From the UHGV virus genome UHGV-0207028: a stretch of 34,923 nucleotides of DNA; one strand, 5' to 3'. The stretch is from a virus. The notes below the pieces were generated by a model. That model ran no database searches and had not been told where the DNA came from. It saw only the letters and a list, made by a program, of their open reading frames with translations. This document shows, one piece after another, positions 2,129 through 34,660 of the stretch; the stretch's first letter is position 1, and every line of letters begins with the position of its first letter. Both the position numbers and the translations under genes were made by a program.

Positions 2129-2206
2129 TGCAAATGAGCCTTGGTTGTGTTATGATGAACACAAGTCATATCAAGGCTCTTTCCAACACGGAAAGGAGCA
2201 GACACC

Positions 2207-3400: not shown

Positions 3401-3623
3401 GAAGTATTGACCACGATTTTAACCACGTTTGACAGGCAAAATATAAGAAGATAGACCTAGAAACGTGAGGTTTAGCAAAACAGAAAAATGCCCGTAGAGC
3501 CGATAAAATAAGGCTTTACGGACATTCAAGAAGATATAAAAAGATAGTCAAAAAGACATATATAATTTATGATAAATGGCCTATGGCTTTTTAATAAAAA
3601 CAAATGAAAAGAGGAATATGAGT

Positions 3624-4754
3624 ATGAAAAGTAATTTATTTACACTATTAAGTATTCCAGAACTTCCCACTAATCGTAACTATTGGATTGTTCGTAGCAA
3701 TGGCGGAATTTTTTATGATGATTTTGTAATGCATGATTATATTGCTATTTCTTGGGATTATGTTACAACAAATATAATGTGTAATGAATCCGAGGCAACT
3801 ATTCGTGCCATTATTGAATCGCAAGAAAAAGTAAATCCTTCTCATGATGGAGAGGATGACACTTTAGACACTGAAGAGCGTGGAACTAAGTCAAAAATAA
3901 CTACGATTTTTAATAAACTACAGCGTTTTATAAATGAATTTTCTGTGAATGACATTGTTTTGGTTCCGAGTAAAGATTCTGACAGAATTTCCATAGGCGT
4001 TATCAAGAGTACTGTTTATGAAGATTCGCAATATGTTCAAAACTATTTATCTGAGGATCCAAACACGGAATTAACACTATGTCCCTATTTTAAAAGACGT
4101 AAGGTTCAATGGATTAAGCATCTAACTAAACAAACTGCTGATATTTATTTAATGAAAGCATTTAATTCACAACATGCCTTATCAAAAATGAATGATTATG
4201 CCCCTTATATTGATAGGACAATCTACCCTATCTATAAGAAAAATGATGAGGTACATTCAACCCTTCATGCAGGGCATCCAAATGGAATGTCTCTCAAAGA
4301 ACTTAGTGATTTAGCACTTAATTTAAATAGTGCTATAGCAGATATATCTGAACAATGCGAATTGCCCATAAAAGAAAAAGAAATCCAGGTTAAATTAAAT
4401 ATTCATTCCCCTGGTTTAATTGAACTTATAGGATATGGAGCGGCCGCCGGGGTTTTTGTTTCTATACTTATGTTCTCGATTAATCATTTAATCAATGGTG
4501 GAAAGCTTAATTTGTCATTCAAAAAAGATAATAATGGTAATATTGATTTTTCTGTTGACGCAGAAACAAAGGGATTAAAGGGACGCGCAGAAGAACGGAA
4601 GAAACTTGAACTCAAAGAGCAAGCACAAATGGCAACTCTCATCAAAGAATTAGATGTAAAAAATCCCGAATTGATTTCCGATGTACTTTTTCACTATAAT
4701 GGACAATCTAATCAAATTGACGAATTAGAAAATACAGAAAAAAAAGAAGAATAG
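3624..4754 (+). CDS. Hypothetical protein: N-terminal soluble domain, one predicted TM helix (GLIELIGYGAAAGVFVSILMFSINHLI) and a charged coiled-coil C-terminus
   Basis: The long ORF runs 3576-4754. The best RBS (GAGGA, 8 nt) serves the ATG at 3624 (MKSNLF...). The gene is very AT-rich compared with its neighbours. I recognise no family. Confidence 0.6.
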   Translation: MKSNLFTLLSIPELPTNRNYWIVRSNGGIFYDDFVMHDYIAISWDYVTTNIMCNESEATIRAIIESQEKVNPSHDGEDDTLDTEERGTKSKITTIFNKLQRFINEFSVNDIVLVPSKDSDRISIGVIKSTVYEDSQYVQNYLSEDPNTELTLCPYFKRRKVQWIKHLTKQTADIYLMKAFNSQHALSKMNDYAPYIDRTIYPIYKKNDEVHSTLHAGHPNGMSLKELSDLALNLNSAIADISEQCELPIKEKEIQVKLNIHSPGLIELIGYGAAAGVFVSILMFSINHLINGGKLNLSFKKDNNGNIDFSVDAETKGLKGRAEERKKLELKEQAQMATLIKELDVKNPELISDVLFHYNGQSNQIDELENTEKKEE

Positions 4755-4759
4755 TTTTT

Positions 4760-4984
4760 CTATTCTTCCAATCGGAACACACGATGTATATATAAATTGA
4801 TTTTTACCCTGTATCTTTTACGAGAAAAAATAATAGGGGCTATAAGCACTATAGCTACTCTAACGCCTTCATTTTTAATAAAAGAGGTTACAGAAATCAT
4901 AACTAAGATCATTGTAAAATATAAAATGGCTGTCATGCAATATGCATCAATCTTTTTATGATGCTTTATAAAAAAAGTATTCAT
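4760..4984 (-). CDS. Small (74 aa) predicted 2-TM membrane protein, convergent with the 3624-4754 gene
   Basis: RBS AAGGGGGTG 6 nt upstream of the ATG at 4984. Two hydrophobic helices are evident. It is AT-rich like its neighbour. It could still be spurious. Confidence 0.35.
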   Translation of the reverse strand: MNTFFIKHHKKIDAYCMTAILYFTMILVMISVTSFIKNEGVRVAIVLIAPIIFSRKRYRVKINLYIHRVFRLEE

Positions 4985-5226
4985 TCATGACACCCCCTTA
5001 TTTTCTCTTCAACTCAAATATAATCATTTTTATTGCTTATTGCAATAGATATTTTGTGAACAATTGTTACAAAAATTTTAAATTTGTCTATAGAATTAGA
5101 AATCCCCAGGAGCCGCGAACTCCCGCGCTCCCGGGGCCACCACCTTGACAATAATATCCTTACCTGGGCAGCCGGGAGGGCGTGCGTGCCATTCGTTCTG
5201 AGTCTTGACAGGAAGGATGGTTGCTT

Positions 5227-5307
5227 ATGAGTACATATGAGGAGTTTGAGATTATATTAGGCGTTGCCTTGTTAATCGTTGCAATCCTGAACATGAAAAA
5301 TAAGTAA
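5227..5307 (+). CDS. 26-aa hydrophobic peptide MSTYEEFEIILGVALLIVAILNMKNK. It resembles the Firmicutes holin-like toxin (Hol-Tox) small-peptide family, so a candidate type I toxin.
   Basis: ATG 5227, TAA 5305-5307. An RBS-like GGAAGGA lies 9 nt upstream. A single TM segment is followed by a KNK tail. It is preceded by a GC-rich structured leader (5101-5226). Confidence 0.45.
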   Translation: MSTYEEFEIILGVALLIVAILNMKNK

Positions 5308-5604
5308 GCCGCCCTGCTCCTTGGCCGGATGGGCGACTTACTAAAGTTGTTATAATTCGCCAGGACGGATAGGCTTAATCTATCTCCCGGCTGTCTTGTT
5401 AAGTATATTATACCAAATATACGGAAATTGTCAAATGTGAAAAGCGGCCCTGTTACCAGCAGGAGCCGCCCTCACATAGATTTCTCTTTCCGGACGAATC
5501 CAGGAAGATATAATCAACTAAACACACCTGAATTATATCATTCCTGAAACGTTCTGGCAAGAGGACGTATTTCTTTTACCCATTTTTTAAGGAGGAATGA
5601 TACC

Positions 5605-6999
5605 ATGGCAACCGCAGTACCATATAAAGACAAAGACGGCCGGATTGTCTCCTACCAGATTCAGGTATTCCGCGGCCGAGACAGTGCCGGTAAGAAGCTT
5701 AAGCCCTACACAGAGAGCTGGAAAGTACCGGAGACGTATAAATCTGAGAAGGCCATCAAAAAGGCGCTGGAAAAGGCCATGGGTGAGTTTGAGGCCAGGT
5801 GCAAGGAAGGTAAGATATCCGTAGATACCAGTACGCTGTCCGAATACTGCAGGCGTTATATTGAACTCAAACGTGGAAACAAGAAAAAATCGGTCGCCTT
5901 CTATGAATCCCTCATGCCCAGGATAGACGCCGAAATAGGCTTCATCCGCCTAGACAAGCTGCGCGCAAAGCATCTGGATGATTTCTATCTGAAGCTTCAG
6001 CAGGAGGGAATCCGGAAGGATACAAAAGCGGTCGCCAGGGACAGTCTGATATCCGAACGTAATAAGCAGAAGCTTACCAATAAGGCCTTGGGCGATTTGA
6101 CCGGGCTCACCCCTACAACAGTTGGCATAGCGATGAAGAAGCGGAACGTGAACCTCCTGACGGCTGAGAAACTATCATCGGCATTGAACCGGAGTGTTTC
6201 AGACCTGTTTGAGATCATAACCCTTGGGGACAAAGAGGGGCTATCCGCAAAAACCGTAGGACACTACCACACATTCATCCACTCCGTCCTTGAAATGGCC
6301 TGCCAGAAAGGGGATATGGCACTCAACGTAGCCAGCAGGGCCACTCCGCCGGCTATCGTGAAAAAGGAAGCGGAATATCTGGAGATAGATGATATCATCA
6401 GGATACGCGAATGTCTTGAAAAGTACCCGATGAAATACAGGGTCATGGTCTGTCTGCTCGTGGATACCGGCGTGCGCCGCGGGGAGTTATTCGGAATCCG
6501 ATGGCCGGTCATTGATTTTGGTAAAAAAGAGATACTGATTGACCGGAATATACAGAGGTTAAAAGGTATCGGTCTGTATGCAGATACACCAAAAGGCAAA
6601 AAATCAAGGGTAGTCAGTATATCAGACGAGATGACAGATTTGCTTAAGGAATACCAGGAATATCAGAAAAAAGAACTGTTCTATGTTGAAGACCCAAATT
6701 ACAATAAAGAACAGTATTTATTCATTCAGGAAAACGGGAACGTAATGGATCCCCACAGCCTGAACCACTGGATCATTGATTTTCAAAAGGCTGAGAACCT
6801 GCCGCATATCTATCCACATAAGTTCAGGCATTCACAGGCCAGCATACTGCTTTACTCCGGTATTGATATCGTGACCGTGGCAGGAAGGCTTGGACATGCC
6901 CAATCCAGCACAACCGGGAACCTATACGGCCATATCCTTCGTCACGCTGACCGGCGCGCATCGGATGCCGTAGCCAGTGCTTTATATAGAAAACGATGA
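5605..6999 (+). CDS. int: Tyrosine recombinase (phage-type integrase) with an inserted XRE-type HTH domain
   Basis: 464 aa. N-terminal arm-binding domain. Catalytic motifs HKFRHSQAS and LGHAQSSTTGNLYGH (Tyr nucleophile), plus R in GVRRGEL. Residues around 150-215 (NKQKLTNKALGDLTGLTPTTVGIAMKKRNVNLLTAEKLSSALNRSVSDLFEI) read as an HTH_XRE insertion. RBS AAGGAGG lies upstream. Confidence 0.9.
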   Translation: MATAVPYKDKDGRIVSYQIQVFRGRDSAGKKLKPYTESWKVPETYKSEKAIKKALEKAMGEFEARCKEGKISVDTSTLSEYCRRYIELKRGNKKKSVAFYESLMPRIDAEIGFIRLDKLRAKHLDDFYLKLQQEGIRKDTKAVARDSLISERNKQKLTNKALGDLTGLTPTTVGIAMKKRNVNLLTAEKLSSALNRSVSDLFEIITLGDKEGLSAKTVGHYHTFIHSVLEMACQKGDMALNVASRATPPAIVKKEAEYLEIDDIIRIRECLEKYPMKYRVMVCLLVDTGVRRGELFGIRWPVIDFGKKEILIDRNIQRLKGIGLYADTPKGKKSRVVSISDEMTDLLKEYQEYQKKELFYVEDPNYNKEQYLFIQENGNVMDPHSLNHWIIDFQKAENLPHIYPHKFRHSQASILLYSGIDIVTVAGRLGHAQSSTTGNLYGHILRHADRRASDAVASALYRKR

Positions 7000-8560: not shown

Positions 8561-8818
8561 CTATTTCCTATCAAAAAATTCTTTAATTTTGTCTCCTGTA
8601 AGTTCTGTACACGTCCGCGTTAACTGCACCTGCTTATGCTTAGATTTTTCTGCTTGCCTCAATGCTTCCACAAATGCATGGGCAAGTTGCCTATCCTGTA
8701 TTTTGATATCTTTCAGGAAGCTCTTTGTTGCCACACATATCGCCCCCACTCTTTTTATTACTCTCCCAAGCCCAGGCCACCGCAGCGCCCCGTCCTTGTC
8801 CGGCGTCAGTGTCACCAC
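8561..8818 (-). CDS. Hypothetical protein (85 aa) downstream of the endolysin
   Basis: Its ATG overlaps the lysin stop. Function unknown. Weak support. Confidence 0.35.
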   Translation of the reverse strand: MVTLTPDKDGALRWPGLGRVIKRVGAICVATKSFLKDIKIQDRQLAHAFVEALRQAEKSKHKQVQLTRTCTELTGDKIKEFFDRK

Positions 8819-9585
8819 TCAAACACGTACCGTCGATTTACCATATCATACTCCTCCGCAATCCGCAGCGCGCCCCTGGCATCCGTAATCATGCACTTGC
8901 CCTCGTCGCTTCCTTTGACCGGGCAGAGTAAAAATGCCTCGCCGGCGGGGTCCACCTGGTAGCCGGTCAGCATGTAGCCCTCAGCATCAAACAGATACCA
9001 GCCACAGGTGCCGTCCGTGGCCTCCCGGAGCCAGTACCAGCCATTGGCCGCATAGCTGCCGTCTGCAAACTGATACCACCAGCGCTGCCCGTCTGCGGAC
9101 GGCTGGAAGCCCTGGGTGTATGTCACTGGAGCCGGCGCGTAATCGATGTCGCAGAGTTTGAGCGCCTTCTGCCAGGGTGTGACCGCCACTCTGGACTTGA
9201 TGGTCCCGTAGTTGATGCCCTTGGCCTCGATGCACCATCCATCCCCGATGTATACCCCGATGTGTCCCGGCTTCCAAAGCGCCCAACCGACCATGGACTC
9301 GTCCAGATGGTCAACGCCTATCCGCTCCACGGCTGTGTCCTGGTAGTTATAGCTGCCGCGGATACGGCCAGTGTACCAGCTGATAAGGCCAGAGCAGTCC
9401 GTGCAGTGCTGCCCGATGTATTTCGCCGCCTTGGCCTTGTAAGTGGATGTGTATGTACCTGGGTTCTCCCAGGCAAGCCTGTCCAGGATGGCCTGGGTAA
9501 GGACCTCGCCCTTGGCCCCGTAGACATAGGGCGTGCCCAGCTTGTCCTTGCAGTGCTGTATTAATCCTGATGCTGTCTTACTCAT
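8812..9585 (-). CDS. Endolysin: N-terminal NlpC/P60-family cysteine peptidase plus C-terminal cell-wall-binding (choline-binding-type YG) repeats
   Basis: Catalytic Cys context GQHCTDCSGLISW and His context HIGVYIGDGW. C-terminal repeats WYQFADGSYAANGWYW and GTCGWYLFDAEGYMLTG. RBS AGGAGG lies 9 nt upstream. Confidence 0.8.
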   Translation of the reverse strand: MSKTASGLIQHCKDKLGTPYVYGAKGEVLTQAILDRLAWENPGTYTSTYKAKAAKYIGQHCTDCSGLISWYTGRIRGSYNYQDTAVERIGVDHLDESMVGWALWKPGHIGVYIGDGWCIEAKGINYGTIKSRVAVTPWQKALKLCDIDYAPAPVTYTQGFQPSADGQRWWYQFADGSYAANGWYWLREATDGTCGWYLFDAEGYMLTGYQVDPAGEAFLLCPVKGSDEGKCMITDARGALRIAEEYDMVNRRYVFEW

Positions 9586-9663
9586 ATACTACCTCCTGTT
9601 AAAAAATAAGGCCCAGGCCATGAAAAGTTGTGACGTCACAAGTTACGTTATTGCAACTGCCGC

Positions 9664-9918
9664 TTAACCCTCTATCATCTGTTTAAACGCCTGATGCAGT
9701 CCTGTACTTGCAAGACCGCTAAAGGCTCCGGCCAGAATGATATCCGGGCTTACACTTCCCGCAATCCAGATGTTAAGTGCTGCTCCCAGGATGGCCACCA
9801 TGGTAGGGATGTATTTGTTGTCCAGGTCTTTCACCCACTTTTTTGCTATGTAACCTATAATCAAGCAAATGCCTACAATGACCGCCACCGCATAATTGCT
9901 AAAAAGTGATAAATCCAT
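9664..9918 (-). CDS. Holin
   Basis: 84 aa, with two or three hydrophobic TM segments and a charged C-terminus. It lies directly upstream of the endolysin in a PBSX-like lysis cassette. Confidence 0.7.
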   Translation of the reverse strand: MDLSLFSNYAVAVIVGICLIIGYIAKKWVKDLDNKYIPTMVAILGAALNIWIAGSVSPDIILAGAFSGLASTGLHQAFKQMIEG

Positions 9919-9921
9919 ATT

Positions 9922-10173
9922 CTATTCCTCTCTTTCTTTTTCCAGGTCACCAATCCTATGGTTGGCAACCTTAATCTGTTCCTGTATGACCGCCTGAGTC
10001 TCCTCCAGCTTGTATGTGCGTTCAATCACAGTGTTGTGCTTATCCACCTTCTTTTCCAGCTGCTCAATCCGGTAATTGGTCAGCTTGGCGGAGGTTACCA
10101 CACCTACGAAAGCTCCCGCAGCGCTCCCAAGCAGGCCGATGAGCGCCACCATGATGTCCGTGGGTATCTGCAT
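9922..10173 (-). CDS. Holin-associated membrane/coiled-coil protein (XhlA-like position)
   Basis: 83 aa. N-terminal TM (MVALIGLLGSAAGAFVGVVTS) followed by a coiled coil. It occupies the XhlA slot of the PBSX-type order XkdW-XkdX-XhlA-holin-lysin. Confidence 0.45.
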   Translation of the reverse strand: MQIPTDIMVALIGLLGSAAGAFVGVVTSAKLTNYRIEQLEKKVDKHNTVIERTYKLEETQAVIQEQIKVANHRIGDLEKEREE

Positions 10174-23615: not shown

Positions 23616-24149
23616 CTATTCTCTGCCTAAGATACTTCTTAAGGCATTGTTTGCTTGTGTCCTTATGTCGTCTGTCTTGTCTCCCCCTGGGCCAGGAGTT
23701 GGCGCAACCACGCGGGGAATACTGACGTCCTGAAACAGATAGCCCTTTTCCTTTTTGACTATTTCCAGGGCTGCCTTGATATCCGATTCCTGGTTCTTGC
23801 TGGCTTTCAGCTTATCCACATCCAAGAAAGGCATAACAGCTTTAATGTCCCTGGGCTTGAAGCCTTCCGCTGTGGATTTCAGAAGGTCGTTAAAATCACG
23901 TTCTGCCAGCTGCTTTTGGTACTCAGCATCCTTGTTGGCCAAGTCTGCCGTCAGGGTCTGTATCTTCCCCTGGAGCTCCGATATGTTTACGCCTTCAAAG
24001 CTCTTAAGGGTAGCTTGTGCTGCGGAAAGCTGGGACTTATAGGTATCCCTTTCCTGCTTAATCCCGTTGACGTCCTTTCCGTATTCGGCCATGACATAAT
24101 CAATCTGTTCCTGTGACAATCCTTTTGCCTGCAAATCCTCTGTCTTCAT
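23616..24149 (-). CDS. Scaffolding protein
   Basis: 177 aa. Alpha-helical and charged. N-terminal MKTEDLQAKGLSQEQIDYVMAEYGKDVNG is typical of GP20-type scaffold proteins. Confidence 0.7.
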   Translation of the reverse strand: MKTEDLQAKGLSQEQIDYVMAEYGKDVNGIKQERDTYKSQLSAAQATLKSFEGVNISELQGKIQTLTADLANKDAEYQKQLAERDFNDLLKSTAEGFKPRDIKAVMPFLDVDKLKASKNQESDIKAALEIVKKEKGYLFQDVSIPRVVAPTPGPGGDKTDDIRTQANNALRSILGRE

Positions 24150-24428
24150 CTTCTTTTCCTTTCCTGCCCGTCCTTAGGTTATTTATAGGTGTGTAACCAT
24201 CCACCAACGGCTGACTGTTTTAGGTCTCATCATCTGACCGATTTTTAAGCATAATAAAAGCACCTGACTAATCAGATGCTTCACTCTCCCGTTTGTATTT
24301 ATAATCCTTACATATATCCTCAGGCGGCTTTTGAGCCAAAACAACTTTCCTTGGTATGCCTTGCGGATATACCCTGCATTTCATACCCTTTTCACAGTAT
24401 TTACATTTTAGGCATATAGGAATCACAA

Positions 24429-26180
24429 TCACTGCTTTCGCCACCTTTCAATGTGTTTTATAACTAATTGCTTAGCTTCGTCCGGAACGGGCTCGTTATT
24501 CCTCATTCTCACAAATGCTTCAGCCAAGGCTTCAAATCCATCCTTCATGGTATCCGAATATCCAGATACCCCCGGAACATATTGACTTTCCAATCGCTCT
24601 TTGAAGGCATTGTAACCAGAAATAGTTTTAAATTGTTGGCCTGCCATTACGTGGGTCATTTCATGGATAGCATGGTCCTTGATGGTGCGGCCGGCAAAAT
24701 ATCCGGTCTCATAACCAGCCTTCACAATCCTTCTGAAGTCAGAGAAATTATAGCCTTTATTAATCACGAACTCAACTTCCCTTGACCCATGATTATCAAC
24801 TACCCTTGTCAGGTATGGGGTGTCAGGGAATCTGTCACTCACATCCTGCACTAACGCCCGGTCAATCCGAAGGTCATATTCCCGCTTCATTTCGTCTATT
24901 CCCGATTGGATTTCATCTACTATATCTGGGGTAATATTCTTTGCGTCCAAGGCTTCATTTGGAAGTCTTATCTCTTTTATTATATCATCTTTGGTATCCC
25001 CTGCAACTATATCCTTTGGCGCCCTCAACCGTTCACGCTGCTGCCGCAGCCCCATTTCCTTGGAAAAGTCCACATAGGTCTTGTTGGTCAGACGCAACCG
25101 GCACTTAGCCGCCGTGATATCCTCCTTGTCAGCTCCAGCCTTCTCCAATAACTCTACATCCTGTTTCTGTTTCCGGATGGTACGTTCCAGTTTTCGCTGA
25201 TGCTGTAATGCCGCATATGTGCCATATTCCCGGCCTCTATATACCCTCTTCTCATTTTCCTTCCGATTCTGTTCTGCCAGCCACTCATCCGTGTACTTAC
25301 GCTTGCTGATACCCGGAATGAAGGCGAAGGCTATATGGTAGCAGTTAATTCCTCCGAAACCTAACATCTGTCCTTTTCCACAGACAGTCCGCATCTCTTC
25401 AGAATTGTATACCTTCCCTTGCCAGCTCTGGTGATTGAGATATCCGGTTCCAGTGTTCCTGGCGCCCATGTGCCAGTCTACTTCACAGTAATCTGTCTGT
25501 AGTTCCTCCATGTTTTTCTCGTTGACCTTATCCGTCATCTGGGCCACACCGGTCATCACTGCACGCCTGGCTGCCACCTCTATGCGGTCTGACTTCCCGG
25601 ATGCATAATCCACAGTCCGGATGCCGCTGGCCGTCATCTCGTCAATCACCTCACCTATGGCCTGGCTGTACGTCCTGGTGCCGGTAGTGATTCCAAGCAT
25701 TGCCTTATCCAGGCTGCGCTCCAGGTATTCAGATAATGGAGTGAATACTTTCCTTCCGCCTATCGGGACATTGAAGCCTGTGGTCTGGGTGATGTTTTCC
25801 AGTGGCCTCAGGCTGTCCTTGGTCTGCCTCCTGGCAGCATCCACGACTTGCTGCAGCCATTGGTTGTCCTCATAGGGCTGGTAGTCCTTGCCAGCAGCCT
25901 CATAGATTGCCTTGTTGCGAATGTAGTCAGACTTGACCGCCTGTTCATAGATGTCATCCACCTGAAGACCCGCCTTTCTGATGCCCTCACCTATCAGCTG
26001 TTTGATTCGCGCCCGGCCTGCTCCAATGGCATCCATCCTCACCAACAGCCAGTCAATGAGCGGAGTTATCTGAGCAGCCGCCTGAATGCGCTGTATGATT
26101 TCATCCATGACGGACAGCTCCAGAGCCGTCATGGTGCGCTCCAATGGTTTGGGCAGCTTCTCCAGCTCCTCTGGTGTCAA
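24429..26180 (-). CDS. Minor head protein (SPP1 gp7 / MuF-like morphogenesis domain) with a roughly 280-aa C-terminal extension containing an HExxH (HEMTH) zincin-like motif
   Basis: 583 aa, immediately downstream of the portal gene. A MuF-type N-terminal half. The C-terminal half carries KDHAIHEMTHVMAG. Confidence 0.7.
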   Translation of the reverse strand: MTPEELEKLPKPLERTMTALELSVMDEIIQRIQAAAQITPLIDWLLVRMDAIGAGRARIKQLIGEGIRKAGLQVDDIYEQAVKSDYIRNKAIYEAAGKDYQPYEDNQWLQQVVDAARRQTKDSLRPLENITQTTGFNVPIGGRKVFTPLSEYLERSLDKAMLGITTGTRTYSQAIGEVIDEMTASGIRTVDYASGKSDRIEVAARRAVMTGVAQMTDKVNEKNMEELQTDYCEVDWHMGARNTGTGYLNHQSWQGKVYNSEEMRTVCGKGQMLGFGGINCYHIAFAFIPGISKRKYTDEWLAEQNRKENEKRVYRGREYGTYAALQHQRKLERTIRKQKQDVELLEKAGADKEDITAAKCRLRLTNKTYVDFSKEMGLRQQRERLRAPKDIVAGDTKDDIIKEIRLPNEALDAKNITPDIVDEIQSGIDEMKREYDLRIDRALVQDVSDRFPDTPYLTRVVDNHGSREVEFVINKGYNFSDFRRIVKAGYETGYFAGRTIKDHAIHEMTHVMAGQQFKTISGYNAFKERLESQYVPGVSGYSDTMKDGFEALAEAFVRMRNNEPVPDEAKQLVIKHIERWRKQ

Positions 26181-26192
26181 TCACATCACCGC

Positions 26193-27575
26193 CTATTCTT
26201 CTGTCATTGCCGGTTCCGGCAGATTCTTGACCGCCTCTTCTAGTGTTTCCCCATAATACTTAGCCCGATATTCCTCTAATCTCATAACTCCCATCGCCAC
26301 ATCCTTGCGGTCCTGCTCCCGCTCAGTCTCTGCGTCAACCATCACACTGTCATCCCAGTCAGATGACACTTCGTAATCATTGCCTGCCGGAACCAATCCA
26401 TATAACGCCGACCAGAAACTCATAGCATACACCAGGTCTTCCAAAGCATCCTGCAGGGCCATCTGGGTGTCAGAGACCATCACATAAGAGCGCTGCCGGC
26501 TGGTCTTAATCTCAGTTGCCGTTTTATCCACGCTCTGCGGGTCTGACAGGGTGCCGTAGGCAAGGTTACAGTTGAACTCCACCAGCTTCAGCTGGTTGTT
26601 AAAGCCGTTGAATAGGGCCGTGTCCCTTATTTCTGGGCTGAAGGTGTCAATGAAAGGCTTATCCGCGGCGCCTGTATCGTATTCCACGTTTCGGTATAAC
26701 CGTTCCTTACCTCCCGGATACTCAAACTTGTCCCGGTCCTGGTTGTACTTTAGCAGGGAGGTGGCAATATGGACAGCCAGCTGTGTCCCCTCATACTCCC
26801 AGCAGATGTTGGAATAGCGCCTGTCTGCTTCCCGGATCAGGTCCACGGCCCTGGAAAACACAGATACGCCCAGTGGGCTGTCTGAATCGTCCGCATTGGC
26901 CAACGGTACCTTAAAGTACCCAAACAGCAACCGGTCTGCCCCCTCAAGCAGCAGCTCCGGAACCAGCTCCGACCACCTGTCTATGGAACTGACCACCACT
27001 TCGCTGCCAAGGCTGTAATCATTTGTGGCCACAAATGCACGGTTGGTAATATGTACCCGTTTTCCCTGCAGCGTGTGTACCTCCAGCCTGGTGTATATCT
27101 TCTGACCCTTCCGGAACTGCTCTGTGAATACACACTGCGTAATCCGACCGGAACTATCGAAAGACAACGGGAAGAAACAGTCTGCCTGTACGAACTGTAC
27201 CTCAATGCCCTGCTGCGTGATGTACGGCTTCATCACCAGTCCGCCTTTCGCACAGCCGTACTCCACATACCTGCGCAGGTCCTTAAGCACCTTACGCTGA
27301 TATTGCTCATTCAGGTAATCCGCCGCCGTTCCGCCTGTCACCTCAGATTTGAGCTCCAGCGTCACCAGGCGCGCAATCTCTGAGGCAATGGCCGGCGCTA
27401 AGTTCGCACTAAGCGCGTCCTTGTTATCCACCCAGGGGGACCGGTTCTCATACATCCGGGTCCACAGCTCTATCTGGTTCGCCATCTGGGATGTCAGGCT
27501 CACATCCACCTGGGTGTCCGCATCCTTATTCAGGATGTTTGTAACCAAGTCCAGCATTTTTGTGAATCTCATCAT
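26193..27575 (-). CDS. Portal protein
   Basis: 460 aa, immediately downstream of TerL. Acidic C-terminus. Confidence 0.85.
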   Translation of the reverse strand: MMRFTKMLDLVTNILNKDADTQVDVSLTSQMANQIELWTRMYENRSPWVDNKDALSANLAPAIASEIARLVTLELKSEVTGGTAADYLNEQYQRKVLKDLRRYVEYGCAKGGLVMKPYITQQGIEVQFVQADCFFPLSFDSSGRITQCVFTEQFRKGQKIYTRLEVHTLQGKRVHITNRAFVATNDYSLGSEVVVSSIDRWSELVPELLLEGADRLLFGYFKVPLANADDSDSPLGVSVFSRAVDLIREADRRYSNICWEYEGTQLAVHIATSLLKYNQDRDKFEYPGGKERLYRNVEYDTGAADKPFIDTFSPEIRDTALFNGFNNQLKLVEFNCNLAYGTLSDPQSVDKTATEIKTSRQRSYVMVSDTQMALQDALEDLVYAMSFWSALYGLVPAGNDYEVSSDWDDSVMVDAETEREQDRKDVAMGVMRLEEYRAKYYGETLEEAVKNLPEPAMTEE

Positions 27576-27582
27576 CTCACCT

Positions 27583-28842
27583 CTATTCGTACCGGATGAA
27601 CCGGCTTATATCACGCTCAAATGTATACTCGAACGCATCCAGCGTATCGATGTCGCTCGTTCCGTCATCCAGGCGCACATCCTCAATCAGACATTTCTTC
27701 TCGTCCCACAGCGCAGTAGTAAGCGCGTCCTCAAGCGTCCGGCACTGGTCCTCGACATAGAAGAAACGGTGCTGGCTGAGCATCCGCTGCATGAACCGTA
27801 TCCGGTCGTTAATTGATGTCTTAAGGGCGTTCTCAATCCTCAGCCAGGACAGGCCCGACTTCCTCGCCGCTGTACGCAGCCCCGCAATCAGTGTCTGTTC
27901 CGCGCTGTCACAGTACACATGGGTGATATACCCATACAGGTTGATTATCTTAAGGCAGAAGTCCACGAACAGGTCCCCAAGGACATCAGGGTCTATGCTG
28001 CCGTTCTTGCTCATGTGCCTCTCACTGGCAAGGGCCGTAATGCCGCCATACCCCCTGGATATGGCTGTCGCAACAAACGCATGGCCGGAACCGGAACCTC
28101 CGAAGTCAACGCCTATGTTGATTTCCATGAGGCTTTTCGGCTTCTCATGGACCGCATATGGATTGATTCTGGCATCACTGGATACTGCATCACACATGAG
28201 TTTATAGATAGAGCCTTCCGCTGCCACCCACAGCCCCCGGATATACCTGTCATACAGCACAGTCCCCTTATACTCCTTGCAGAGCTCAGCCACGAACCCC
28301 TGGTCCAGGAAGGGATTGTCAAATATCTCATACTTCTGGCAGTAGATGTCCGCATCTGAATCCAGGAATGCCTTGAACCAGTGCTGCGGCGCATCCGGGT
28401 TGCATGCCCCATCAAAACAGGAATAAGGCTTATCCAGACGGGACTTCAGCATGTCAAATACATCCTTGTTCCAGTCCGTCACCTCATCACCATAGCAGTA
28501 CTTAAGCCCGGAACCCCTGAGTTTCGATACCTGGCTGACCTTTTCGGCACCCAGGCAGTAGACATCCTCACCAAACATGTGACAGATGTTCTGTGAGTTG
28601 ATATCCCCTACAAGCCGTGTCCCCCATATCCCCTGCAGGGGTTCTATGATGTTCCTCTGGATGGTACCTTTGGATACCCCCAGGATGGCAGTCAACCCTT
28701 CCTTCCCTGCCCTTGCCCGGATACGCTTGGGTATGACATAATAGTCCATGTAGGTCTTTCCTGACCTGGTAGCGCCTGATTTTATGTTCCAGCGGTGGTT
28801 TGCGTTCTCAAAAAACTCCTGCTGCTTTTTGGAAAATGGCAT
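27583..28842 (-). CDS. terL: Terminase large subunit (PBSX family)
   Basis: 419 aa. N-terminus MPFSKKQQEFFENANHRWNIKSGATRSGKT carries Walker A GxxxxGKT. A nuclease domain follows. Confidence 0.9.
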   Translation of the reverse strand: MPFSKKQQEFFENANHRWNIKSGATRSGKTYMDYYVIPKRIRARAGKEGLTAILGVSKGTIQRNIIEPLQGIWGTRLVGDINSQNICHMFGEDVYCLGAEKVSQVSKLRGSGLKYCYGDEVTDWNKDVFDMLKSRLDKPYSCFDGACNPDAPQHWFKAFLDSDADIYCQKYEIFDNPFLDQGFVAELCKEYKGTVLYDRYIRGLWVAAEGSIYKLMCDAVSSDARINPYAVHEKPKSLMEINIGVDFGGSGSGHAFVATAISRGYGGITALASERHMSKNGSIDPDVLGDLFVDFCLKIINLYGYITHVYCDSAEQTLIAGLRTAARKSGLSWLRIENALKTSINDRIRFMQRMLSQHRFFYVEDQCRTLEDALTTALWDEKKCLIEDVRLDDGTSDIDTLDAFEYTFERDISRFIRYE

Positions 28843-29544
28843 CTATACAACCCCCTTAATCTCAGACAGCACCTTGTCAAGCTTCTGCAGTTCCTCACTG
28901 CTCTCCGTCCCCTTAAGCCTGTCGGTATTCGCTTTGATCTGCGCAATCCGTGCCTTCTGCTCCTCACTGGCCAGTTCCCAGTTTTTATGCAGCAGCTCAT
29001 CGTACTGTTTGATGAGCCCTTCCAGCGTCTTCTGGGCCCGGGCCTGGGCCTGCAGGAAGTTGCCCTGCTTATCCCAGGCCTGCTGCACCTCCCATTCCTC
29101 GCCGGATATCTTTCCTTTCTTGACACCCACCCGCTCAATGGTCTTGTCATCCCGGTCCCTCACATACATGATGGTCTGGGCCCGGATGATGGCAGCATAT
29201 GCAATCTGTACCTGGTCCCATAGGATGTCCAGCGGGTCCGTGGGCATCTCCTGAATAATAGAAACGGTCTCCTCAGGCAGGTACTTGCTGAAGAAACCGT
29301 ATTTTTCTGCGTTCTTATTCTTCGGCGGCCCTGTGGCGTTCTTATTGCCAGGCTGGGCGCCGCGTTTTCTTTGCGAACGTTCGCTAACTCTATCCGAACG
29401 CTCGTTATTCCACTTGTGTGTGCACTTCCACCGGCGGACCGTTCCCTCCGGCAAATTTAGTTGACTTGCAATCTCAACTAGTTTCCTGCCTTCCAGATAC
29501 ATGGCCTTCGCCTGTTCGATTCTTGGGTCTGGCGCCCTGGCCAT
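28843..29544 (-). CDS. terS: Terminase small subunit
   Basis: 233 aa. N-terminal HTH (LEGRKLVEIASQLNLPEGTVRRWK). Its stop abuts the TerL start. Confidence 0.7.
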   Translation of the reverse strand: MARAPDPRIEQAKAMYLEGRKLVEIASQLNLPEGTVRRWKCTHKWNNERSDRVSERSQRKRGAQPGNKNATGPPKNKNAEKYGFFSKYLPEETVSIIQEMPTDPLDILWDQVQIAYAAIIRAQTIMYVRDRDDKTIERVGVKKGKISGEEWEVQQAWDKQGNFLQAQARAQKTLEGLIKQYDELLHKNWELASEEQKARIAQIKANTDRLKGTESSEELQKLDKVLSEIKGVV

Positions 29545-29628
29545 GCCTCCTCACCTCGATTCGTCGTTTTGGGTATAGAAAAGAGCCGCCCGGAGGTGGC
29601 CCCTAATCATCGCCTTTTATATGATAAA

Positions 29629-30261
29629 TTATGGTTTTTCTTCCTCATCTATCATTTCAAGAACTCTTGTCACAGCATATATATTGAACAGTTGAAAAAT
29701 TGTAGAAACGAAACTAACTGTCCTCCACAGTATTATTCCAATAAAAATAAAATAAACCGCAATTAAACTTACTGCAATCACATTATTTACTATCATGTTT
29801 AAAAATAATGTAAAACTGTCAGGAAAACAAAACATCACTATTTTTATAATCAATGTTACAATTATCGCAATAACATACAATAGCATTAAATATACAAAAT
29901 TCTCATTGATATCTTGTAATCTACTCTTTTCTCCTCCGTCACATACTTTTGTGTCTTTTAGAAGTTGAAGTAACATCTGTTTATTCATAAAGGCTTGTAG
30001 CAAGGAATATCCAGTGAAAATTACTCCGAAAAGTGCTAGTGAAACATTTAAAATAGCATCTATACTTTCTCTGAAAATAGTGACTGTTTCTTTATGAATT
30101 CCGACTATGGAACCGAGGATACAACATATAACTACTAATATCCATCGTGATTTCCTATTCTTCTTTTCAACTTTAAGAGCTTTGATTGCTTTAAAAAGTA
30201 ACTTTTCAGAAGGTTCAGATTGAAGTAATTGTTCAATATTATCAAGATTTAAATTATCCAT
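29629..30261 (-). CDS. Predicted 4-TM membrane protein, second gene of an AT-rich two-gene cassette
   Basis: The ORF extends to 30303, but RBS GGAGGGGG sits 9 nt before ATG 30261 (MDNLNLDNIEQLL). TM helices: WILVVICCILGSIVGI, AILNVSLALFGVIFTGYSLL, FVYLMLLYVIAIIVTLIIKIVMF and IAVSLIAVYFIFIGIILW. Confidence 0.6.
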   Translation of the reverse strand: MDNLNLDNIEQLLQSEPSEKLLFKAIKALKVEKKNRKSRWILVVICCILGSIVGIHKETVTIFRESIDAILNVSLALFGVIFTGYSLLQAFMNKQMLLQLLKDTKVCDGGEKSRLQDINENFVYLMLLYVIAIIVTLIIKIVMFCFPDSFTLFLNMIVNNVIAVSLIAVYFIFIGIILWRTVSFVSTIFQLFNIYAVTRVLEMIDEEEKP

Positions 30262-30283
30262 AATCATCCCCCTCCAAAATTGT

Positions 30284-31267
30284 TTATTTTTCCTTACGAA
30301 CAAATTTTATTATTTTCCCTTGATTTCTCAAATATATTTTATTATTTTCCTCACTAGTATAATTTATACTGTCAATTTCTTTTCCCTGATTAATCATGCT
30401 GGATAACTCTGCATTTCTCTCTCCATCGGGTACACGCATTTTTCTCCTATCAGATATTTCATTATACTTAATCGTGGATTCCCCTTTTCTTCCTGGATAC
30501 TTCGCCACCACAATAGGCTCAACTGTACCTTCCGCTGCCTCTACTACCTCTATAACTCCATTAATATTCTTTGGTGATCGGTATGTTACCGATCCCCGAT
30601 CACTTCCTATTTTTCTACGCAATTCTTTTGATATCCCGCTCATTATCTCAGATAAATCTATATCTCCATCACCATTCAACGGATAAAACTTCAATGTCAA
30701 TGTTGAAATTTTTTCTACCTGTTTTAATGCCGCTATCATGCCACCCTTAGGCGGTATTCCCACGACACTGACAAGAGGAATTGGAAGCTGCTCTTTCTCC
30801 TGCTCCATTCTTGCATGGTTCTCTCTTGCAACGTACGTATCTAAAACATACTTAACAGTTGAGCGGAAGCTGTCCAAAGATGGACTTCCTTTTTGATTTT
30901 CAACTAAAATCATTCTATGATTTTTTAGGTAAATTATAAAAGTAGAAAATGGAGCCGTTGGATAAACATCATTTCTTTCGACCAAATTCCCGTTCTCATC
31001 AAACATAGATTTAACTTCAAGAACTGTACTTTTAACAATCAACCCTGTCAATATATATTCACAATCTGCATCCTGATTAACTTCAATATCCATAAGCAAA
31101 TAGGTATTATCCCCTTGGCTTCTTGTAATTCCACTTTTCAAAGCCGGCATTAAAATAGTGTCAAAATAATCCAGTAACGGACTCTCATCTTTGTCCCCCA
31201 TAAAAACTACATTAAAATTAGCCACTGATACCTTTTTCTCATTATTTGCACTTTGCTTTTTATCCAT
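30284..31267 (-). CDS. Hypothetical soluble protein (327 aa), first gene of the AT-rich cassette
   Basis: ATG 31267 with a GGGGAG RBS. TGTGATATAAT extended -10 at 31298-31308. I recognise no catalytic or known-family motif. Confidence 0.6.
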   Translation of the reverse strand: MDKKQSANNEKKVSVANFNVVFMGDKDESPLLDYFDTILMPALKSGITRSQGDNTYLLMDIEVNQDADCEYILTGLIVKSTVLEVKSMFDENGNLVERNDVYPTAPFSTFIIYLKNHRMILVENQKGSPSLDSFRSTVKYVLDTYVARENHARMEQEKEQLPIPLVSVVGIPPKGGMIAALKQVEKISTLTLKFYPLNGDGDIDLSEIMSGISKELRRKIGSDRGSVTYRSPKNINGVIEVVEAAEGTVEPIVVAKYPGRKGESTIKYNEISDRRKMRVPDGERNAELSSMINQGKEIDSINYTSEENNKIYLRNQGKIIKFVRKEK

Positions 31268-31394
31268 TTTATTCTCCCCGTTTCGACGTTTTTCTTAATT
31301 ATATCACACGCCGAATGGAAAGAATATACAAATATCCCCCTCCCAATTCCACAAATCTTACAAAAACATACCCATATTTTCTCTTCGTAACCAA

Positions 31395-31423
31395 AGTATA
31401 GAACATATGTTCTTCTGAGTCAA
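31395..31423 (-). promoter_or_regulatory. Sigma70-type promoter TTGACT-N17-TATACT (minus strand) with the perfect palindrome GAACATATGTTC (31401-31412) inside the spacer
   Basis: Read on the reverse complement. -35 at 31423-31418 and -10 at 31400-31395. An imperfect hairpin plus T-run just upstream (31440-31470) would terminate incoming transcripts. Confidence 0.5.
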
Positions 31424-31739
31424 GGGTCAAATAATAAAAAGGACACCCTATTTCTAGGATGCCCTAATTGTATCTGGAAAATGTCGTGGGGGATAAAACC
31501 AGATACCTCACCGCCTGTGTACCCTGCGGCATTGTCCCGTTAAAGCACAGGTCTGTCTTATGAGGGATTACACAATACCGGTTAGTCAGCCACCAGGGTA
31601 TGACACCTGGCAGCCGCTATCTGTGGGGAGGATAACAAAATCAAGTCTTTTTCGTATCACCCAATTTTGCATATTACAATTATAAATCATCCAAGCGGAC
31701 ATGACAAGGACACGATTTTGACACGCTCCTGTCAAGCCC

Positions 31740-32240
31740 CTAATCCAGCATGAGGGCATCCGACCCAAACAGATATACACTAAGTATCCCCGTAAGTTCC
31801 GTTATCCATCGCCTGGCCGTCCGCTCCCCATATCCGTAAATCTCTGCAATACTTTCGTATGTCATCCCATCCAGATAGAAATACTTGAATGCCAGATACT
31901 TCTCATGCGTATTCTTCCGACACTCCTCATCCTCCAGGAGCTTCAGACACTTGTCTATGTGCCCTATCATTACAATACTCCGCAGCTTGCTCTTGAGGAT
32001 ACTGTTGATAAAGATATCTTCCTCGGTGAACTCCTCCAGTTCATCGCCATTATCCATGTCGGACAGTTCTGCCACCCCCTCCTCCACGCTCTGACAGATG
32101 CGGTTATAATTCTCCATCAGCTTCTTGGTGTTCTGGAATACTTTTATTCTCTTTTCCCTTCGGAGTTGCTTCTCATGTTCCTTAAGGGCTTCCTTTGCGG
32201 CTAGCCTGGCCACTTCCTCCAACGCTTCTGTCTGTTTCAT
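31740..32240 (-). CDS. ArpU-family / sigma-like phage late transcriptional regulator
   Basis: Start chosen at ATG 32240 (MKQTEALEEV), with GGAGG 8 nt upstream. The C-terminal YGYGERTARRWITELTGILS is a sigma-70 region-4-like HTH. Its position upstream of the packaging genes is typical. Confidence 0.6.
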   Translation of the reverse strand: MKQTEALEEVARLAAKEALKEHEKQLRREKRIKVFQNTKKLMENYNRICQSVEEGVAELSDMDNGDELEEFTEEDIFINSILKSKLRSIVMIGHIDKCLKLLEDEECRKNTHEKYLAFKYFYLDGMTYESIAEIYGYGERTARRWITELTGILSVYLFGSDALMLD

Positions 32241-32534
32241 CGGCATCACCTCCTCCCGCATCCAGCCACGGGCATGCCCAGCACCCGTACCGTATCCTGC
32301 CCTTGTTGTTACGCTGGCCGTCACAGCCCCCACGCCCGTTGTCTATGTAGCACTGTCTCATGGTACCGTCTCACCTCTTTCGGCGGCCTGCGCAGTTCCG
32401 GGTCCGGGCACAGGCTGGTGTATGCATAGGGCGGCATCCTGACAGGCCATGTATCCGGCGGCGGTTCTCGGATGGCCGATTCAGCTGATGCCGCCACGGC
32501 GGATGCCCGCAGGACCTTGTTGGCCTTGGCCTGT

Positions 32535-32687
32535 TTACTGTCTGCTTTCTTTCTCATAGAAATCCTCCACCCATTCCAGTGGCTCCCCACAATCCTGGCA
32601 ATAACTCTGTCCCATCTCAACCTCTCCCCCACATTCAGGACACTCATAGATTATGCCATGCTCCATATCAATTTTTATTTTTGCCAT
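32535..32687 (-). CDS. Small zinc-ribbon protein (50 aa; CPECGG...CQDCGE)
   Basis: Not in the ORF track. MAKIKIDMEHGIIYECPECGGEVEMGQSYCQDCGEPLEWVEDFYEKESRQ. Frame checked from ATG 32687 to TAA 32535-32537. Confidence 0.4.
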   Translation of the reverse strand: MAKIKIDMEHGIIYECPECGGEVEMGQSYCQDCGEPLEWVEDFYEKESRQ

Positions 32688-32702
32688 CTTGTTCTCCAAA
32701 TC

Positions 32703-32867
32703 CTAATCTTCCTCATTACGTGCTGTGCAGTATACGCACCGCTTGCACAACTCTATCGGCTCGTCATTATTGGCGTGACCAAATCCCATGCACTTACCAT
32801 TACTGTCCCGTCCCGGCTCCCCGCAACACCTAATATACTTACAATTATCTGGCGTTCTCTTTGGCAT
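32703..32867 (-). CDS. Small Cys-rich protein (54 aa, 8 Cys)
   Basis: Start at ATG 32867 (MPKRTPDNCKYIRCCGEP...), with RBS GAGGAGGTG 4 nt upstream. The longer ORF to 32957 lacks an RBS. Confidence 0.45.
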   Translation of the reverse strand: MPKRTPDNCKYIRCCGEPGRDSNGKCMGFGHANNDEPIELCKRCVYCTARNEED

Positions 32868-32999
32868 CTTACACCTCCTCGTATAATAAGTTCGTAGGCA
32901 AGAAATATCGCTTATGAACTTATTCTTTTTATGGGTATAGATGGTAAGGACATCCAAGAGGAACTCCCCTCATCCTGAATCCCATCCATACGGTCAACA

Positions 33000-34660
33000 G
33001 TTACTTTTTATATGATTCATCCTGTGTTATGATATCAGGCAGAGTCTGATGTCCGAAGGCACTGCTTTTCCTCCTTTCAGCCGGCTTTGGCCGTGACTGC
33101 TTTTTTAGCATTCAGCCTGGCACATATGGCACATTCCGCTAACACAGAATTTTCGTCCCCCGCCGTAGCTCCAGCAAGAAAGGCTGGCCGGGTGCATGCT
33201 CATTGCGCGAGGCTTCGGTCACCATATGCAGCACAGGATAAACCTTTTACTTCAGGCTCCACAAATCCAGATCGGAAAGGATGTGATATCTTGTTAAAGA
33301 TCAACTATATGTCCACCTTGTTTGTAGGTATTGATGTAAGCTCAAAATCCAATGCGGTCTATGCCATGGATTTTGAAGAAAACAAGTACATCTCATCCTC
33401 ATTTGGCAACAATCAGCCCGGCGCTGATGAACTTGCCGATATGATCGCTAAATGCATGCAGAAACATAAAAACCTTGATACAATCATCGTTGCTTTAGAG
33501 TCTACCTCTGTTTACAGCGTCCATATCGCAAATTTTCTTTCTACATGTGAGACGCTTATGCCGTACAAGCCCTATGTTTTCTGTGTCAACCCCAAGGCTA
33601 CATCCAATTACCGTAAATCCTATATCGGAATGGAAAAGACGGATCCTATCGATGCTTTTCTCATTGCTGACTTCGCAAGGGTCGGCAGGACGAAAAAGCT
33701 TGAGCCTTGGCGCGGCGGCCAGTTTATCGCCCTGAAGCGTCTTACCAGGCATCGCATGCACCTGTCAGAATGCATTACCAGGGAAAAGACCTACATGGTT
33801 TCAAACCTGTATCTGAAGTTCAGCGAACTGCAGCTTCTTGAGGGTGATAACAAGCCGTTCAGCAATATTTACGGCGCAACATCTTCTGCCATACTGACGG
33901 AGTTCCTGTCCCCCCAGGAGATCATCGACCTCTCAGAGGAAGAACTCCTTTCGTTCCTCGCTGAAAAAAGCAGGAACCGTATTTCTGACATATCCAGGAC
34001 ATCCGAGCTTTTGCGGAAAGCCGCAAGGGACTCGTACCGTTTGGATCAATGCATGTATGAACCACTGAATATTTCACTTGCAAGCTCATTTAACTGCATC
34101 CAGGCCTATCAAAAAGAAATAAAACTGATAGAGCAGGCAATTGAAAAGTGCATCAATGGGATGAACCCGAATGCGTTTCTTATCCTGAAGTCCATTCCCG
34201 GTATCGGACCGGTATGGGCCTCCGGCATGCTGTCCGAAATAGGCGACATAACTGCGTTCCACTCATCCGATGCACTTGCAAAGTATGCCGGTTTGTACTG
34301 GCTGAAAAACGATTCCGGCGATTTTATTTCCGAGGACAATCAAGTCTCAAAAGTCGGGAATCCGTATCTGCGCTATTATCTGGGAGAAGCGGCTAACAGC
34401 GTCAGGAAGCATGTGCCAGAATACACTGAGTATTATGCAAAAAAATATGCTGAAGTTACCAAGCATCAGCACAAAAGAGCACTCGCGCTTACATCTCGTA
34501 AACTTGTACGGCTTGTTTTTGGATTGCTGGTCAAAAACCAACTGTACACCGGCGAAAAGCTGGACACTCAATCAAATATCAACAAGAACTGATGTTCGCC
34601 TTTGGATTTTCCGCCGAAGGTCTATTAAAGTTACCCTTTTTCCTGAAAAATATATCAAAA
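33000..34660 (+). mobile_element. IS110-family insertion sequence (boundaries approximate)
   Basis: It contains an IS110-type transposase. IS110 elements lack obvious terminal IRs, so the ends cannot be fixed by eye. Confidence 0.55.
33309..34592 (+). CDS. IS110-family transposase (DEDD N-domain plus Transposase_20 C-domain)
   Basis: Start at ATG 33309 (MSTLFVGIDVSSKSNAVYAMD...). C-terminal SIPGIGPVWASGMLSEIGDITAFHSSDALAKYAGL is the IS110 signature. The upstream in-frame extension to 33087 has no coding features. Confidence 0.85.
   Translation: MSTLFVGIDVSSKSNAVYAMDFEENKYISSSFGNNQPGADELADMIAKCMQKHKNLDTIIVALESTSVYSVHIANFLSTCETLMPYKPYVFCVNPKATSNYRKSYIGMEKTDPIDAFLIADFARVGRTKKLEPWRGGQFIALKRLTRHRMHLSECITREKTYMVSNLYLKFSELQLLEGDNKPFSNIYGATSSAILTEFLSPQEIIDLSEEELLSFLAEKSRNRISDISRTSELLRKAARDSYRLDQCMYEPLNISLASSFNCIQAYQKEIKLIEQAIEKCINGMNPNAFLILKSIPGIGPVWASGMLSEIGDITAFHSSDALAKYAGLYWLKNDSGDFISEDNQVSKVGNPYLRYYLGEAANSVRKHVPEYTEYYAKKYAEVTKHQHKRALALTSRKLVRLVFGLLVKNQLYTGEKLDTQSNINKN

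Follow-up and report, generated by a model that had tools for sequence, protein, structure and literature searches.

Rex of phage lambda is the oldest abortive-infection system known, its mechanism is unsettled, and few families of its kind have been characterised. The crystal structure of RexA contains a split globular domain with seven antiparallel strands, a central dimerisation domain and flexible hinges, and its authors report RdgC as a structural relative of RexA (PMC11077077). Alongside Rex itself, Rex-like systems of the DUF4747/CarolAnn kind are known, and the actinophage pairs Sbash gp30/gp31, CarolAnn gp44/gp43 and Butters gp30/gp31 are long-known prophage systems of abortive infection or exclusion in which a soluble protein of ~370 amino acids (aa) accompanies a four-transmembrane (four-TM) protein of 165-178 aa. 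The actinophage systems are expressed in lysogeny, Sbash from its own promoter, and in Sbash gp31 the central cytoplasmic loop holds invariant residues and the substitutions that inactivate defence. With Sbash gp30/gp31, the DNA of the incoming phage gets into the cell and its early genes are switched on. A further pair, RexABpp (PP_5643/PP_5644), resides in a Pseudomonas putida prophage, and its PP_5643 matches RexA in HHpred with 98% probability. Here we analyse a two-gene cassette in the UHGV virus genome UHGV-0207028, all 34,923 nucleotides (nt) of which we call the window. The cassette encodes a 327-aa soluble protein, A, followed by a 210-aa four-TM membrane protein, B, and is accessory mobile cargo in a gut-bacterium prophage.

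The initial annotation of this DNA, made from the sequence alone, regarded the cassette as a potentially new kind of defence or abortive-infection module that couples a soluble protein to a small multi-TM effector. That logic we judge to be right. The novelty has given way to a closer affiliation: the fold of A is that of lambda RexA, and the architecture is that of RexAB, Sbash, CarolAnn and Butters. Thus the cassette is most likely a distant, unannotated relative of RexAB and not a new kind of defence, and we favour, with fair confidence, its being a prophage-borne, RexAB-type two-component abortive-infection or exclusion system. This reading draws on the RexA fold of A and the soluble-first gene order, on a four-TM partner whose conserved loop is predicted to be cytoplasmic, and on prophage residence with candidate signals for autonomous expression and a cI-linked relative. 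What is new is a large and widespread family that includes very common human-gut prophages, and a sharply bounded slot upstream of the gene for the terminase small subunit (terS).

The fold of A, the topology of B and their pairing

The module and its two genes lie on the minus strand (all positions are those of the window):

29565..31506, minus strand: the whole mobile cargo module, with junction, putative terminator, promoter candidate(s), gene A, gene B and downstream hairpin
31267..30284, minus strand: gene A, a 327-aa soluble protein modelled with a RexA/RdgC-type two-domain fold
30261..29629, minus strand: gene B, a 210-aa four-TM membrane protein, putative effector

The GC content of the module is 0.338 (0.356 in gene A and 0.286 in gene B), against 0.513 at 24000-29564 and 0.50 at 31507-33000, which bears out the initial, by-eye estimate of about one third against about half. 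The spacing of 22 nt between the stop codon of A (TAA) and the ATG of B also agrees with that first estimate. We place the start of B at the ATG at 30261, from an alignment of 31 homologues and the ribosome-binding site GGAGGGGG; the mechanical open reading frame (ORF) call opens earlier, at a TTG at 30303. When the region was compared with deposited phages by megablast, the sole match was 190 bp long and lay elsewhere in the window. Searches of PADLOC and of profile libraries, which the initial annotation had proposed, found no significant match to A or B in Pfam, PADLOC, PHROGs or NCBIfam, and the same was true of distant family members. As that annotation had stated, no nuclease, NTPase, TIR, SIR2 or HEPN motif was recognised in A.

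The A family is large, with 357 relatives among 90% clusters and, at the 50% identity level, 647 representatives, 135 of them with E <1e-30. The index lists 1148 assembly blocks for the identical protein, which in Enterocloster clostridioformis is annotated just as hypothetical. A profile search against PDB sequences with A1, A2 and A4 found nothing. Structure prediction followed by Foldseek, likewise proposed at the outset, led to RexA. The AlphaFold2 model of A, built with 53 homologues (pLDDT 80.4, pTM 0.80), has seven strands with flanking helices at residues 10-155, an alpha/beta domain at 163-278 and C-terminal helices. Lambda RexA (8TWQ) headed the Foldseek ranking of PDB entries (E 3.5e-7, probability 1.00), with E 0.019 for the runner-up, and was the best PDB match for A by two independent methods. 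As modelled, A carries the split-globular-domain plus dimerisation-domain fold of lambda RexA. By analogy, it is probably a dimeric, non-specific DNA-binding sensor.

Across relatives of A that share ~25% identity, G75, H117, P129 and N198 are the only invariant positions. Separately, we noted that residues 196-207 (P-L-N-G-D-G-D-I-D-L-S-E; 30647-30682, minus strand) are invariant or nearly so and fit an EF-hand calcium-binding loop at all positions but the first. The one supporting match, to calcium-binding protein 1, is weak (E 0.29), and the model of A is of low confidence at 201-212, which overlaps the loop. H117, N198 and the EF-hand-like loop could bind a metal or small ligand, or could be catalytic.

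B has hydrophobic segments at about 38-56, 70-88, 125-143 and 161-179, and its AlphaFold2 model consists of four long helices, in keeping with the four TM helices that were first recognised by eye. The segments are framed by an N-terminal tail of 37 aa and a C-terminal tail of 31 aa, and the loop between TM2 and TM3 is 36 aa long with five K/R. Since the N-terminal tail and this loop are basic, the positive-inside rule predicts that both termini and the loop are cytoplasmic. Conservation of B peaks in the same loop (FTGYxLLQAFMNK...SRLQDINENF).

A four-TM ORF of ~200-220 aa follows A at 22 of 25 viral loci and 15 of 19 genome loci (about 37/44). The gap between the two is 2-26 nt everywhere but at one locus, where A is frameshifted and the gap is 143 nt. 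Paired genome loci include Lachnospiraceae, Dorea, Roseburia, Faecalimonas and the actinobacterium Collinsella (A 32% identical), and at every locus the cassette has a lower GC content than its flanks. The downstream neighbours in relatives are mostly the terminase small and large subunits and the portal. Relative to an 81%-identical copy (L010), Ka/Ks is 0.06 for A and 0.16 for B, values that are approximate because dS is near saturation; B diverges faster than A. By this comparison of sequences, both A and B are under purifying selection. At ~6 of the 44 loci, among L011, L020, L026-L028, L139 and L141, A or B is truncated or frameshifted (for example B of 115 or 130 aa, A of 107-271 aa), which suggests that the module is recurrently inactivated.

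The relative most reminiscent of lambda is found in the P2-like Klebsiella phage 4LV2017, whose gp02 is an A homologue (hhalign 99.9%, E 3.5e-31) that begins 2 nt past the cI stop. The order there is cI repressor, A homologue, an unannotated 201-aa four-TM ORF (L029 4540-5145; NC_047818, record about 1244-1849) and integrase, and the arrangement is that of lambda cI-rexA-rexB. The same gene pair is present in 11 other Klebsiella prophage records, which lack annotation. PADLOC, Pfam, PHROGs and NCBIfam all miss the family, which occurs in prophages of gut Lachnospiraceae, Collinsella and Klebsiella. Defence annotation of gut prophages would gain from its recognition, and its diverse sequences would help to define the essential features of RexA-fold sensors and their membrane partners.

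A variable cargo slot upstream of terS

The cassette occupies a slot between a regulator gene and terS, delimited by the following features:

28843..29544, minus strand: terminase small subunit (TerS), downstream flank, phage backbone; NCBIfam NF040601 E 4.7e-64, Pfam Phage_terminase E 8e-10
29581..29604, minus strand: hairpin followed by UCUUUUC, at the slot's downstream junction, ~37 nt before the terS ATG
31470..31506, minus strand: upstream junction at the upstream edge of the slot, inverted repeat GTATCTGG-N21-CCAGATAC
31740..32333, minus strand: helix-turn-helix (HTH) / sigma-70 region-4-like regulator, upstream flank, phage backbone; sub-threshold matches only

By comparison with relatives, the cargo spans 29608-31469 and the module that is exchanged spans 29565-31506, which nearly coincide with the interval 29545-31470 that the initial annotation had marked out. 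That annotation had taken the interval for separately acquired cargo in a hotspot for accessory (moron) genes, and both views are borne out by what follows. A and B are absent from 80/80 IMG/VR contigs that carry a related TerS (64-87% identical to that of the window); we reject the pair as core phage gene(s) on this ground. At least four phage backbones, which differ in TerS families, portals, capsids and replication modules, encode an identical A; it is always followed by the 210-aa partner, and a terminase small-subunit gene lies downstream within ~0.8 kb. Two unrelated backbones, L113 and L115, share DNA with the window at 97-98% identity only from 31506/31507 to 29564/29566. In L115, 2 nt separate the end of a tRNA-Met gene (9662-9735) from the module's upstream junction.

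Relatives that share the regulator show what else the slot can hold. The distance from regulator to terS is 477-478, 780, 1007 or 2375 nt in these phages and 2195 nt in the window. The 477-478-nt state contains no cargo-length ORF and has an ordinary GC content of 0.49. The 1007-nt state carries a SLATT_5 membrane protein (Pfam E 4.9e-8; PADLOC RTasSLATT E 8.7e-13), and the 2375-nt state carries a dGTPase (PADLOC E 5.3e-105) together with a 195-aa protein that has no assigned function. In the cargo-swapped relatives, homology to the window ends at 31470/31469 and restarts at 29607/29604. The two sets of breakpoints, from unrelated backbones and from cargo-swapped relatives, bracket short junctions common to all these phages (31506-31470 and 29604-29565). 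The upstream junction is kept both in cassette phages and in relatives with other cargo (dGTPase, SLATT). The downstream junction and hairpin region is common to the cassette-bearing unrelated phages and L050, and has diverged in L068.

A 26-nt core of the junction is present in 26 IMG/VR contigs (L146-L171), where it is followed by 79-2783 nt before terS, lengths being counted wherever the contig sequence sufficed. The GC content of the cargo is 0.31-0.39 throughout. We distinguish at least nine states of the slot: an empty one (79 nt), a 115-aa TM ORF, two SLATT types, the present Rex-like pair, the dGTPase with its 195-aa neighbour, a 366-aa fusion of soluble and TM parts, a remote relative of A (hhalign 68%, E 4.7e-5) with a 243-aa multi-TM protein after it (L161), and an unrelated two-gene cargo that encodes a soluble protein of 302 aa and a TM protein of 188 aa (L155). 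Recognised defence genes account for at least two of the alternatives. The survey of the slot that the initial annotation had suggested thus finds it empty, or filled with dGTPase or SLATT, in relatives. The slot resembles a defined hotspot for defence genes in which short homology arms serve the exchange of cargo, and the ~37-nt inverted-repeat junction and the downstream hairpin may mediate the swapping of cargo between unrelated phages. With its Rex-like pairs, dGTPase and SLATT genes, it is a practical place in which to seek further defence genes of Bacillota phages.

Comparison with Rex and with other explanations

The likeness to lambda RexAB is one of fold and layout: A has the two-domain, RdgC-like fold of RexA, and a four-TM gene lies directly 3' of it, at a gap of 22 nt. 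The two systems differ in that neither A nor B has detectable sequence similarity to its lambda counterpart, in that A is longer than RexA (327 vs 279 aa) and B longer than RexB (210 vs 144 aa), with a longer N-terminal tail and central loop, and in location. The lambda pair lies in the immunity region and is co-transcribed with cI in lysogeny, whereas the cassette lies in the slot upstream of terS and has its own promoter candidates and a putative terminator upstream.

Several results weigh against a RexAB-type system. The Pfam models PF15969/PF15968 and the PADLOC RexA/RexB models match the lambda proteins, not A or B; in the positive control, the RexA models found lambda RexA at E 1e-97 and 9e-110 (Pfam PF15969, PADLOC). 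With hhalign, the A family scored a probability of 0.5% against lambda RexA, taken as a single sequence and as a 23-sequence alignment. The B family scored 0.6% against RexB, and comparisons with CarolAnn gp43, the actinophage profile and the Klebsiella B-like ORF all gave about 0-1%; the Collinsella partner reached 43%. At the level of structure, the global TM-scores of A against 8TWQ are low (0.30-0.36), so the match is local and domain-level; a hinge between the two domains plausibly explains these scores. A resembles RdgC almost as much as RexA, and the fold is therefore also compatible with a DNA transaction unrelated to defence. The structure of B found no match in BFVD at E <0.001 and no RexB in the top 50, so that a fold-level tie of B to RexB could not be demonstrated, and four helices are a common design among membrane proteins. 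The promoter and the terminator are predicted solely from consensus matches or folding energies. Moreover, DNA binding by RexA is not required for T4rII exclusion (PMC11077077), in a system whose mechanism is itself unsettled.

Other described systems resemble the cassette to differing degrees. The layout of B (N-terminal tail/loop/C-terminal tail of 37/36/31 aa) is closest to that of CarolAnn gp43 (34/29/23) and also resembles Sbash gp31, which B further matches in being most conserved in the central, predicted cytoplasmic loop. Both families, A and CarolAnn/Sbash, carry the N-terminal motifs ANFN and LLxxF in colinear positions. Sequence similarity between B and gp43 or gp31 was not found, and hhalign of the A family gave E 0.03 and a probability of 1.6% against a profile of CarolAnn gp44, Sbash gp30 and Sejanus gp46, which is not significant, and 0.2% against CarolAnn gp44. 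A faint precomputed match to DUF4747 (PF15931) on 12 of 120 listed A homologues was not reproduced by our own hmmscan. The hosts differ as well: CarolAnn and Sbash infect Mycobacteriales, whereas the A family is found in Bacillota, Coriobacteriia and Enterobacteria. RexABpp is set apart by the HHpred link of PP_5643 to RexA, as A has no sequence-profile link to RexA.

Other defence systems were considered and rejected. Kiwa also combines a four-TM membrane protein (KwaA) with a soluble protein (KwaB, DUF4868) in a logic that involves the membrane, but its gene order is the reverse, neither PADLOC nor Pfam gave a match to KwaA, KwaB or DUF4868, and Kiwa entries were absent from the top PDB structural matches of A. 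Here we concur with the initial annotation, which had set Kiwa aside. CBASS and Pycsar do not fit a locus of only two genes in which A has a RexA-like fold and no cyclase, SMODS or PADLOC match.

Taking characterised Rex-type systems as our guide, we infer lysogen expression, interaction of A with B, DNA binding by A, an effect on the membrane and protection. In such a scheme, the pair would be transcribed in the lysogen from its own promoter, and the upstream terminator would insulate it from late transcription of the phage. When a heterologous phage infects, a phage protein or an intermediate of replication or recombination would activate A, which would then act on B, probably via the conserved cytoplasmic loop. 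B would damage the integrity or potential of the membrane, growth would stop and the infection would be aborted.

The resemblance to RdgC raises the alternative that A works for the prophage itself as a DNA-binding protein of RdgC/RexA fold, with B as its membrane anchor or modulator. A might then shift the balance between lysis and lysogeny, an effect that RexA exerts without RexB, or influence recombination, and the pair would not be primarily anti-phage. RdgC is a stand-alone chromosomal gene, and to our knowledge it does not pair with a membrane protein. A, by contrast, lacks a Pfam match to RdgC (PDB 2OWL), resides in prophages and keeps a four-TM gene beside it at about 37/44 loci. The pair is remote from immunity regions both in the window and in the majority of Lachnospiraceae relatives, and relatives fill the same slot with dGTPase or SLATT defence genes. 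A self-contained module that moves between unrelated phages is, moreover, unexpected for a component of a repressor-tuned switch. We consider a self-serving role distinctly unlikely. The pair might also be a toxin-antitoxin-like addiction or stress module that stabilises the prophage, with B as a membrane toxin and A as its cytoplasmic regulator. Such a module would fit the tight coupling of the genes, the small membrane protein among the products, the truncated A or B at ~6/44 loci, as expected if the pair is costly or toxic, and the toxin-antitoxin-type genes (HicB, Fic, SocA) near some relatives. Yet neither A nor B matches a toxin-antitoxin family in Pfam, NCBIfam or PADLOC, and A, with 327 aa and a RexA fold, is unlike known antitoxins. 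In practice, addiction shades into abortive infection and the two cannot be cleanly told apart; as an explanation on its own, we find addiction very unlikely.

Superinfection exclusion (Sie) had been offered in the initial annotation as an alternative, and it came nearer the mark than the headline claim of a new system. Its envelope-level version, in which B blocks incoming DNA in a Sie/Imm-like manner, A is accessory and growth is not arrested, fares less well. Small inner-membrane proteins encoded by prophages are typical of Sie systems, but known Sie membrane proteins act alone, whereas B has a conserved cytoplasmic partner of RexA fold, and the conservation of B is strongest in the predicted cytoplasmic loop, not in the short outer-side loops; we regard this as the least probable of the explanations considered. 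Alternatively, the resemblance to RexA may reflect nothing beyond a shared ancient fold, and the cassette may be a new defence system after all. The missing sequence-level similarity to any Rex component, the lack of a described counterpart in RexA for H117, N198 and the EF-hand-like loop, and the length of B (210 aa, against 144 aa in RexB) would then be accounted for. On the other hand, the fold, gene order, partner topology, prophage residence and cI-linked relative all fit the Rex pattern, and the Sbash, CarolAnn and P. putida systems, whose sequence links are equally weak, act like Rex when tested. A new system thus strikes us as highly improbable, much like addiction. Modular mobility, the defence-cargo slot and conserved pairing, taken in combination, are less consistent with addiction, envelope-level exclusion or a new system than with a RexAB-type pair. 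A more ambitious form of the RexAB-type reading holds that the cassette represents a third, sequence-independent branch of RexA-fold plus four-TM systems, with a mechanism unlike that of lambda Rex, in a previously undescribed defence hotspot of Lachnospiraceae phages. It would draw on the invariant residues and EF-hand-like loop of A and on B, which is half as large again as RexB and has a conserved, structured loop in the predicted cytoplasmic part. We think this more ambitious form doubtful as it stands.

Expression signals and neighbouring elements

Three candidate signals lie between the upstream junction and gene A:

31298..31306, minus strand: extended -10 element TGATATAAT, 31 nt 5' of the A ATG, read directly from the sequence
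31395..31423, minus strand: sigma-70-type promoter candidate TTGACT-17-TATACT, 10/12 consensus positions
31440..31465, minus strand: intrinsic-terminator-like hairpin and U-run at the start of the cargo, an 11-bp stem followed by TTTTTATTATT

The initial annotation had described a promoter of the cassette's own and an extended -10 element near the first ATG, and candidates for both are present. The match of TTGACT-17-TATACT to the consensus suggests promoter activity; the extended -10 was missed by the promoter scan owing to its poor -35. The hairpin at 31465-31440 has a predicted free energy of -21 kcal/mol (z -4.56), a stability reached by 0/200 shuffles, and would be expected to act as a terminator. 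The hairpin at 29604-29581, which precedes the terS ribosome-binding site, is weak in comparison with shuffles (-16.6 kcal/mol, z -1.07).

Upstream of the slot, a near-consensus sigma-70 promoter, TTGTCA-17-TATAAT (11/12), directly follows the regulator stop (region 31466-31707, minus strand). After it comes a leader of ~200 nt that is kept in relatives up to 31584 and folds marginally better than shuffles (z -1.7); an Rfam scan of 29400-32000 gave no match. These elements may be the promoter and leader of the packaging operon, in which case the terminator at the head of the cassette would need read-through.

The two genes that flank the slot had been named in the initial annotation as terS and an ArpU-like regulator. 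The former holds, by the NCBIfam match given above. For the latter, library scans gave no ArpU match, and sub-threshold matches to HTH_23, HTH_28, Sigma70_r4_2 and TIGR02937 point weakly to a sigma-70 region 4 or HTH protein. In relatives the regulator product is 168 aa, which would correspond to an ATG at 32246. The lysis module, assigned by eye, lies elsewhere, at 8.8-10.2 kb, with an endolysin-like gene at 8812-9585 and small TM ORFs at 9664-10173. We reject B as a holin, since the prophage has this separate module of endolysin and small TM genes.

The left end of the window (915-6999, plus strand) resembles another mobile element, with a MobT-like relaxase at 915-1925 and tyrosine recombinases at 2207-3400 and 5605-6999. 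The two recombinases flank a second AT-rich island (GC ~0.31 at 3501-5000), inside which a 392-aa ORF without an NCBIfam match occupies 3576-4754. Towards the other end, just upstream of the phage regulatory region and on the opposite strand, lies a transposase of the RNA-guided IS110 family (33087-34592, plus strand; NF033542 E 2.4e-63).

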